Source of the DNA: Escherichia coli
Lineage (GTDB): Bacteria; Pseudomonadota; Gammaproteobacteria; Enterobacterales; Enterobacteriaceae
NCBI RefSeq assembly: GCF_003334785.1
Contig: NZ_QOWV01000011.1
Length of the DNA stretch: 64,000 bases
Reading direction: 5' to 3' (one strand)
Positions 37,701-37,840 of this stretch are shown here, piece after piece. A program made the translations under genes and the position numbers. The notes beneath the pieces are model-generated. The model was given only the letters and a program-made list of their open reading frames with translations. It was not told the DNA's origin and did no database searches. Numbering within the stretch: position 1 is the first letter of the stretch; the number at the start of each line of letters is the position of its first letter.

Positions 37701-37840
37701 CAGTCAGTATAAATACGCTTCGCGCACGAGTTCACAGTATTTAGGTTTACTGTCATTAAAAATACGCTTCGTGCAGAAGTTCAGAAAAATGGGGTTAGCT
37801 GTCAGCACAAATACGCTTCGCGCAAAAAAAAATCAGGAGG
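37701..37840 (+). repeat. Three tandem ~35-bp direct repeats (iteron-like), ~48-50 bp periodicity
   Basis: Units ctgtca...aaatacgcttcgcgca at cores 37711-37726, 37759-37774 (one mismatch, gtgca) and 37809-37824. Confidence 0.7.

Follow-up and report, generated by a model that had tools for sequence, protein, structure and literature searches.

Direct repeats of 49-bp period in the origin region of a pHW126-type replicon on a mobilisable Escherichia coli island

The 64,000-nucleotide stretch of Escherichia coli DNA analysed here (RefSeq assembly GCF_003334785.1, contig NZ_QOWV01000011.1; hereafter the window, its first letter being position 1) carries three direct repeats between rep, a gene for a 187-aa helix-turn-helix (HTH) protein, and a divergent gene for a 141-aa protein. 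Judged from sequence comparison, these repeats are located in the origin region of a pHW126-type replicon on a mobilisable island, and it is their job there that we infer. It is very probable that they form a selected cis element of this origin region. It is possible, and tentatively preferred here, that they act as additive, accessory GAA-loop hairpin or priming signals of the replicon's complementary-strand (single-strand) origin. The 49-bp repeats are new relative to the plasmids of the family, and the integrated replicon is itself undescribed in the searched literature, where no integrated element with a Rep of the pHW126 type came to light.

Layout, copy number and conservation of the repeats

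In a repeat search of the window, the three copies of a 36-nt unit fell at 37691-37726, 37740-37775 and 37789-37824; their starts are 49 and 49 bp apart and their pairwise identities 75-81%. Tandem Repeats Finder reported 37696-37824 (score 139, period 49, 2.6 copies). The array as a whole (37691-37824, no strand assigned) is defined by these repeat searches and by its conservation in relatives. The first-pass annotation, made from the letters alone, had noticed three direct repeats here, and their existence is confirmed: in E. coli, Salmonella, Citrobacter and others the homologous elements have them at the matching position, and they are therefore no chance feature. Its placement was less exact, as the stretch that it gave, 37701-37840, is off by about 10 bp and its spacing of 48-50 bp is really exactly 49 bp; the flanking genes were as it described, namely the 187-aa open reading frame (ORF) at 36686-37249 on the minus strand and the 141-aa ORF at 38289-38714 on the plus strand. 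Best conserved within the unit is a 16-bp core, which reads AAATACGCTTCGCGCA on the plus strand and TGCGCGAAGCGTATTT on the minus (rep-sense) strand; it is exact in R1 (37711-37726) and R3 (37809-37824), has one mismatch in R2 (37760-37775), and is accompanied in the units by a second, semi-conserved box, CTGTCA. Beyond the array, the 64-kb window holds a single match to the core at up to 3 mismatches (at 62357, with 3), against a chance expectation of 0.93. Each flanking start codon is about 450 bp away from the array, which has the 141-aa gene 465 bp downstream and spans -440 to -575 relative to rep; the conserved origin block known as CR (-263 to -298) lies between the repeats and rep.

Relatives of the element, drawn from genomes and metagenomes, have 3, 2, 1 or 0 cores, spaced in every case by exactly 49 bp, with the rep-proximal core about 476 bp from the rep start. 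Three copies are present in the lineage of the window, in other E. coli, in Citrobacter and in a Salmonella element with a 71% identical Rep; two copies characterise the mutS-type islands, which reached this state through at least two different unit-register deletions, that is, by independent 3-to-2 losses; and one copy is found in Superficieibacter-type elements, single-copy lineages being L026, L027 and L108. No recognisable core was found in Yersinia-type relatives, which have ACGAAACGT at the homologous place, or in Cronobacter-type relatives. The array is thus dispensable within the element family, some members having none.

Compared with the Salmonella element, the window is identical at 44 of its 48 core positions (~92%), whereas in the same comparison the R1-R2 spacer is 42% identical and the stretch from CR to a conserved hairpin (37641-37679, see below) 47.5%; synonymous divergence (dS) of rep between the two is 1.48, at which synonymous sites are saturated. 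The cores are under purifying selection. Since they have been kept while neighbouring DNA has drifted to 42-48% identity, and since the E. coli and Salmonella elements have orthologous copy-specific spacers, the comparison argues that the three-copy state is old and maintained, with each core selected. A neutral minisatellite, in which a stretch with one functional site was duplicated in tandem and its copies are without a role of their own, might be read from a copy number that ranges from 0 to 3, from the repeated unit-register deletions and from the existence of single-copy lineages. However, near-invariant cores beside diverged neighbours and saturated synonymous sites, together with orthologous copy-specific spacers, make this reading highly improbable. 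The same orthology of the "spacers", the 75-81% likeness of the repeats and the lack of cas genes agree with the earlier statement that the units are not a clustered regularly interspaced short palindromic repeat (CRISPR) array.

Outside the element family the core appears to be no widespread signal, as of 22 matches of the 16-mer in IMG/VR 21 were single, unphased and at chance level, and 1 was a true homologue; the intergenic region had no blastn match among plasmids and phages. Immediately after R3 there is an A9 tract (37824-37832, plus strand), which varies from A6 to A9 in relatives. Just past the array, a strong Shine-Dalgarno-like AGGAGG precedes a 9-codon ORF with a TTG start (37833-37873); it is probably not a coding feature, because the AGGAGG is lost in the Salmonella element.

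A pHW126-type Rep and its origin elements

The product of rep (36686-37249, minus strand) was assigned by BLASTP to the Rep proteins of the pHW126/pIGMS31/pIGRK family, with 40% identity over 131 aa to RepM of pIGMS31 (E 7e-30), 30% identity to Rep of pHW126 (E 4e-14) and 47% identity to Reps of 2.7-kb plasmids (E ~1e-55). A large protein search returned homologues of 45-48% identity on 2.6-2.9-kb contigs from many Enterobacteriaceae, and in tblastn against PLSDB the homologues lay on circular plasmids of 2.3-3.1 kb, pIGMS31 and pHW126 among them, as the only candidate replication gene. Weak matches to HTH_36, Phage_rep_O and Rep3_N in Pfam, to TIGR01610 and to replication-initiator PHROGs were also obtained; a profile search of PDB with Rep gave weak Cro/MarR helix-turn-helix matches only (E ~0.1). 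Likeness to Rep proteins, the lack of which would have told against the first-pass annotation, was therefore found in the HTH protein, and the annotation's suggestion of an origin-like, plasmid-derived replicon beside a mobilisation module is upheld by the Rep family together with a CR at conserved distance from rep. Its word "remnant" does not fit, as the ratio of nonsynonymous to synonymous substitution rates (dN/dS) of rep against relatives is 0.09-0.14 and the module is kept in islands at several different insertion sites; rep is under purifying selection and is no decaying remnant. Two linear 3.6-kb Salmonella records that PLSDB labels as plasmids, OX345049.1 (L006) and OX345050.1, carry the island rep (67% identical) and a relaxase 82% identical to that of the island, and look like unplaced chromosomal fragments of an island element rather than plasmids.

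In the plasmids of this family, whose origin has been studied by experiment, the single-strand initiation region (ssi) is followed by CR, then by four iteron-like repeats of 20 bp, and these by short inverted or direct repeats ahead of rep (bioRxiv 10.1101/2022.12.05.519187); the sites bound by Rep are the iterons, CR and the operator repeats (bioRxiv 10.1101/2022.12.05.519187; PMC6854812). RepM nicks the rep-sense strand of pIGMS31 at 2268/2269, just upstream of CR, and the minimal origin of that plasmid is 258 bp (bioRxiv 10.1101/2022.12.05.519187). In the pIGMS31 sequence (L009, NC_011406.1) the nick falls, on the rep-sense strand, 9 nt 3' of a GCGTAGC motif at 2253-2259. Among the family plasmids compared here, three or four dyad iterons of 17-23 bp, spaced 21-24 bp, stand between CR and rep.

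The intergenic region of the island is 1,041 bp long and is present in 107 of 5,426 complete E. coli genomes, always in the chromosome. Proceeding upstream from rep, it contains a putative promoter, one or two iteron-like dyads, CR, the conserved hairpin, the 49-bp repeats and a GC-rich hairpin cluster. The box TTGACA at 37302-37307 (minus strand), read from the sequence and invariant in relatives, is a candidate -35 box of the rep promoter, with TTGACA or TTGACT at the same position in the plasmids. The dyad GTTATGTGATTGATAAT (37422-37438) matches the plasmid iteron ATTATGAAAATCATAAT on both strands and is found at about -190 in most relatives, although with 5 mismatches; a second iteron-like site, the palindrome AATCATATGATT (37475-37486), shows AAAATCATA, which is common to plasmid iterons, and an invariant ATGATTT. 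Both sites are weak matches in AT-rich DNA, but they recur at the same offsets in most lineages and may tentatively be viewed as counterparts of the plasmid iterons. CR itself, GGTTTCTTATTTCTTTAT...TATCTTGCAG in the sense of rep (37512-37547, minus strand), was located by alignment with six plasmids, is invariant among relatives, and is the most conserved non-coding block in all of them; its offset from the rep start is -278 to -300 in islands and -282 to -294 in plasmids, and islands and plasmids share the motif GGTTTCTT(A/C)TTTCTT. In several island lineages (for example L016, L026 and L013), the lineage of the window not being among them, GCGAAGC or GCGGAGC abuts CR.

Upstream of CR there follows the conserved imperfect hairpin (GAAGCC / GCGCAAC ... 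GTTGCGC / GGCTTC; 37641-37679, minus strand), in which 97.8% of cells are paired over 14 distinct relatives, with 1 compensatory pair and four one-sided changes, every one of which gives G.T on the rep-sense strand; its z-score in DNA folding is about -2.4 to -2.6. On the far side of the repeats, the GC-rich hairpin cluster (37895-37969, minus strand) is 75-97% identical across all lineages and is composed of CGGC-NNNN-GCCG (37895-37906), CCGAAGG (37911-37917) and CAGCG/TGAGTGC...GCACTCA/CGCTG (37935-37969). In the first of these parts the loop letters vary (GTGA, GAAA, GTAA, GTAT, TTAT, GAAT) and the stems are kept, and within its GCG-NN-AGC centre lineages differ in the two loop letters only (TG, AA, TA). 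The window has CGGCGTGAGCCG here, and the Cronobacter-type lineages L019 and L030 have CGGCGAAAGCCG, which is identical to the core of hairpin I of phage G4 oric (G4 3974-3985) and is found in Cronobacter-type relatives only. From its sequence the cluster is a candidate single-strand initiation region, and also a candidate origin of transfer (oriT). Beyond it lies a conserved block, GGGGCGTAAGCCAGTGCGTAGCAC (38033-38056, plus strand), with a GCGNAGC motif in which N is T, C or A in relatives. Against the Yersinia and Cronobacter relatives, 37895-37969 and 38033-38056 keep 74-97% identity, whereas the surrounding DNA is ~30% identical. Folding of 37630-38110 on either strand was no better than that of shuffles (z -1.4 and -0.65), and therefore no single large structured RNA or DNA is indicated; Rfam gave no match at gathering or E-value thresholds. 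Further out, in AT-rich DNA close upstream of the 141-aa gene, there is an 18-bp tandem repeat, TATATATGAAGAATAAAA (2.2 copies, 38177-38215), that is poorly conserved in relatives.

Like the plasmid module, the island has a homologous Rep, a CR equally far from rep, a GC-rich zone of palindromes upstream of CR that resembles ssi, and an AT-rich region upstream of rep with a TTGACA box. It differs in that it is chromosomally integrated and mobilisable, with a MOBP/Q-like relaxase of its own, in that the four-iteron block has shrunk to one or two dyads, and in that the zone on the ssi side is much longer (~450 bp) and holds the 49-bp repeats, which are unseen in the plasmids. A block of four 20-bp repeats with 2-nt spacers was sought in 37250-37511 and is absent there. 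By its sequence, the island replicon thus appears as a structural variant of the pHW126-like module, with Rep, CR and ssi-like palindromes present and the four-iteron block absent. Nor did the search for the repeat among plasmid origins, which the earlier idea of a plasmid-derived array invited, yield a counterpart of the 49-bp repeats in plasmids of the pHW126 family.

As an integrated mobilisable element with a plasmid-type rep and oriV, presumably used after excision, the island resembles SGI1, which has its own rep and an oriV with iterons (PMC7433901); it differs by a Rep of another family and a relaxase of its own, and its replication is predicted only. The EARL/ICEKp258.2 islands share DUF6387, AlpA and the integrase, but have a different relaxase and no such rep listed. 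Replicons like pHW126 are known only from tiny cryptic plasmids, and their mode of replication (rolling circle, theta or both) is debated; here Rep and CR are conserved under selection as a module of mobilisable islands in the chromosome. Should this module be active, the islands would replicate themselves after excision or transfer, with effects on how stably they are kept, on their dosage and on how they spread. Relatives that naturally have 0, 1, 2 or 3 repeats and have nearly lost the canonical iterons provide ready-made constructs with which to dissect the elements of the origin.

Possible roles of the repeats

The first 13 nt of TGCGCGAAGCGTATTT can pair, with a stem of T-A, G.T, C-G, G-C and C-G and a GAA loop, and from CR to the GC-rich cluster the mini-hairpin motifs (GCGAAGC three times, CCGAAGG at 37911-37917 and GCG-NN-AGC at 37895-37906) are all on the rep-sense strand. 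The repeats themselves are upstream of CR, in the zone where pIGMS31 and pIGRK carry ssi. A model may be proposed from this arrangement, in which Rep would nick near CR and the rep-sense strand would be displaced, the strand being assigned by homology with pIGMS31; if the pIGMS31 nick carries over via the homology of CR, the repeats would be located upstream of it on the displaced strand. There each core, TGCGCGAAGCGTA, may form a 5-bp hairpin with a GAA loop, which is the d(GCGAAGC) "mini-hairpin" motif, and the core hairpins and their neighbours may remain free of single-stranded DNA-binding protein (SSB) and mark the starts, or the organisation, of complementary-strand synthesis. Extra copies of the repeat would add strength without being essential, and the repeats would act after excision, or upon conjugative entry as single-stranded DNA. 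Both the formation of hairpins by the cores and their part in priming are thus putative.

Mini-hairpins of the GCGAAGC and GCGNNAGC type have been described in the primase origin of phage G4, in RSF1010 ssiA (as CCGAAGG) and in the single-stranded promoters of phage N4, whose hairpins have GAA or GGA loops and 5-bp stems, and the d(GCGAAGC) hairpin is far stabler than nearest-neighbour rules predict and resists the binding of SSB (PMC13037366). Several core variants fit such a hairpin, namely a loop change from GAA to GGA (R2 of Salmonella), a succession of T-A, T.G and C-G at the outer pair, and a change of G.T to A-T. Better supported than the core hairpins is their neighbour at 37641-37679, whose one-sided changes are all of the G.T type on this strand. 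In pIGMS31 and pIGRK the ssi is dispensable, its loss raising copy number and multimerisation (bioRxiv 10.1101/2022.12.05.519187; PMC6854812), which fits the variation from three copies to none and the two independent 3-to-2 deletions.

Several observations weigh against the hairpin model. By nearest-neighbour folding each core reaches only about -2 kcal/mol, a value that shuffled sequences match, and the special stability of the motif is taken from the literature; GCGAAGC is also common, with 17 occurrences over both strands of the window. The covariation seen in the core stem is reached by 143 of 500 shuffles and falls short of significance, and two natural variants break a pair, a G-to-A change in R2 of the window and a T-to-A change in R1 of Salmonella. 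The conserved TATTT flank after the hairpin and the CTGTCA box are left unexplained by a hairpin, the CTG start for primase 3' of the hairpin is conserved for R3 only, and the Yersinia- and Cronobacter-type relatives lack the core motif. Finally, the rolling-circle mode is itself disputed for the family, mixed theta and rolling-circle intermediates having been reported for pIGMS31 (bioRxiv 10.1101/2022.12.05.519187), and the putative single-strand function is deduced from sequence.

When the zone is set beside known ssi signals (G4 oric, and RSF1010 ssiA and ssiB; Nomura et al. 1991), there are in common hairpins with GNA or GNNA loops on one strand, CCGAAGG as in RSF1010 ssiA, GCG-NN-AGC or CGGCGAAAGCCG as in G4 hairpin I, and a placement of the island hairpins that would be suitable for complementary-strand initiation. 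The island differs by having its units in tandem, which is not described for ssi signals, and by a CTG start that is not consistently present; local alignment with G4 oric revealed no overall similarity, the 12-nt CGGCGAAAGCCG of the Cronobacter-type relatives being all that is common. A bolder version of the hairpin model, which seems distinctly doubtful, would give the islands a working pHW126-type replicon with its lagging-strand origin rebuilt as a phased array of mini-hairpins, with one 13-nt hairpin every 49 nt and gaps of 36 nt that approximate one SSB tetramer in its 35-nt mode. If true, this would be an undescribed, repeat-based single-strand origin, and would couple the replication of a defence-carrying island after excision or transfer to priming by the host.

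The main rival to the hairpin reading is an array that binds protein as double-stranded DNA, whether as secondary Rep sites (for copy control, handcuffing or incompatibility), which would make them functional iterons in a new format, or as sites of another protein of the element or the host that would regulate either the firing of the origin or the divergent genes. Three regular direct repeats beside rep, with 16-bp cores far better conserved than their spacers, are what such an array might look like; Rep of pIGRK and pIGMS31 binds several origin sequences (IT, CR and IR), the conserved TATTT flank and the semi-conserved CTGTCA box resemble sequence-specific recognition, and a replacement for the canonical iterons would be sensible where these are reduced, as in the islands. 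However, the core has no dyad symmetry beyond its mini-stem and is unlike the family half-sites GTTATG and ATTATGA, and a period of 49 bp amounts to 4.7 helical turns, so that proteins bound at successive units would face different ways around the DNA. Whether relatives have 0, 1, 2 or 3 repeats, the putative recognition helix of their Rep (SNVSRAFKEL) stays the same; the part of the island that is homologous to the 258-bp minimal origin of pIGMS31 does not include the array; and no other DNA-binding gene co-varies with the repeats. Protein binding of this kind is on balance unlikely.

A narrower form, in which the repeats would be the Rep-binding iterons of the family, was rejected. Several direct repeats beside rep with a conserved core are indeed shared with theta-type and pHW126-like iterons, and the first-pass annotation called the units iteron-like and considered binding by the HTH protein. 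That part of its account is partly contradicted, in that the size, the sequence and the 49-bp period (21-24 bp, or ~22, in the iterons) differ, no dyad is present, the position is on the far side of CR and outside the minimal origin, and the repeats are missing in close relatives, the Yersinia and Cronobacter types, despite the same SNVSRAFKEL helix. Other protein-binding candidates were set aside as well. A sopC-type centromere was rejected as the core has no dyad and ParB-like genes are 11 kb away in the window, with none annotated in the parts of relatives that were covered. Readings of the units as Pho-box, DnaA-box or IHF sites, judged by eye against the consensus sequences, gave only half-site or 6-of-9 matches and were dropped.

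It might also be supposed that the units are hairpin-plus-flank sites at which the relaxase (at oriT) or Rep recognises and nicks the DNA, the hairpin being placed directly 5' of the nick as in an oriT. The region upstream of the MobC-like gene, which is the usual place of oriT, is only 52% conserved among relatives, and no conserved oriT was found there, while the intergenic region is highly conserved, and oriT may therefore lie in the latter, whose hairpins are candidates although no nick consensus is conserved; the mapped pIGMS31 nick, close behind a GCGTAGC on the rep-sense strand, would also suit nicking, and the nic region of R388, GCACCGAAAGGTGC-GTATTGTCT/AT, appears to resemble GCGCGAAGCG-TATTTGTGCT. 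Against this, active nick sites in tandem do not last in rolling-circle systems, where a pHW126 construct with two tandem origins loses one of them by deletion (PMC2831885), yet three copies have been kept in the E. coli and Salmonella elements. The motif is missing from relatives that have a relaxase of the same family, and the stems are far shorter than typical oriT inverted repeats. A nick-site role of the repeats is accordingly improbable.

A transcriptional element, comprising tandem weak promoters, terminators or operators that serve origin transcription or the 141-aa gene, has in its favour a terminator-like match on the minus strand at the R3 core, the -10-like strings TATAAAT and TGT-CATTAA in units R1 and R2, and the divergent arrangement of rep and the 141-aa gene. 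However, a scan for promoters and terminators came out at chance, the promoter scan giving no site in the array and a total for the region of 5 against 5.4 expected, the stems are too weak for intrinsic terminators, and with some 450 bp to either start codon and no match to an RNA family, such a role is very improbable. A repeat RNA of the ToxI kind (type III toxin-antitoxin) was rejected, as there was no Rfam match and the downstream gene is 465 bp away, without a match to ToxN, Pfam or PADLOC.

The island and its neighbouring genes

In the window the island is situated between an ileY-type tRNA gene (27889-27964, plus strand, anticodon CAT) and ssrA (54114-54476, minus strand), with an integrase ORF (52718-54091, minus strand) directly beside ssrA; the rep and mobilisation module is therefore carried by an island at the ssrA-ypjA-ileY locus. 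The same gene module is located beside tRNA-Leu and mutS in other E. coli, and at other sites too, and the window copy has no integrase adjoining its DUF6387/AlpA end, unlike the tRNA-Leu and mutS copies. Beyond E. coli, the module is found in Salmonella, Yersinia, Cronobacter, Citrobacter, Superficieibacter, Phytobacter and Pseudocitrobacter, and Klebsiella is a further host genus of the islands. It comprises an integrase (in most copies), DUF6387, AlpA, the 187-aa HTH gene, the intergenic region of ~1 kb, the divergent 141-aa gene, small lipoprotein genes, a relaxase and a MobC-like gene, and is the backbone of an integrative mobilisable element family of Enterobacterales, whose cargo is variable and often of the defence type.

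The 141-aa protein gene (38289-38714, plus strand) is conserved and always divergent from rep across the intergenic region. Its product has no Pfam, NCBIfam, PHROG or PADLOC family, and its AlphaFold2 model is all-helical and of low confidence (pLDDT 52), too poor for a fold search. The mobilisation module (40100-41733, minus strand) consists of the relaxase (40100-41329), which matches MobB, TraI_MobP and MbpB of NCBIfam, all below the curated cut-offs, and for which the Pfam Relaxase family is matched in relatives, and of a small upstream gene (41326-41733) that is MobC-like by position only, being without an NCBIfam match and annotated "ATP-binding protein". Upstream of the latter, two palindromic boxes, GGGTATAC and GGTATACC, are found 20 bp apart at 41833-41860 (minus strand), with different inverted repeats in their place in other lineages; they are possibly a MobC operator or oriT.

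Among the cargo of the island copies are NACHT, dCTP deaminase, Kiwa KwaAB and restriction-modification genes. In the window, with annotation taken from the identical region of NZ_CP025903, the cargo downstream of the mobilisation module includes a NACHT-domain protein with a RelA/SpoT-like ORF (45028-48047), and a pair of ParB/Spo0J-like ORFs with a serine recombinase after them (49100-52441), all of which look like defence or maintenance genes. Between AlpA and rep there are two small ORFs (36316-36621, minus strand; 35833-36144, plus strand), which gave no protein-family match, and in strain 300709, unlike in the window, this same interval contains an IS3 element.

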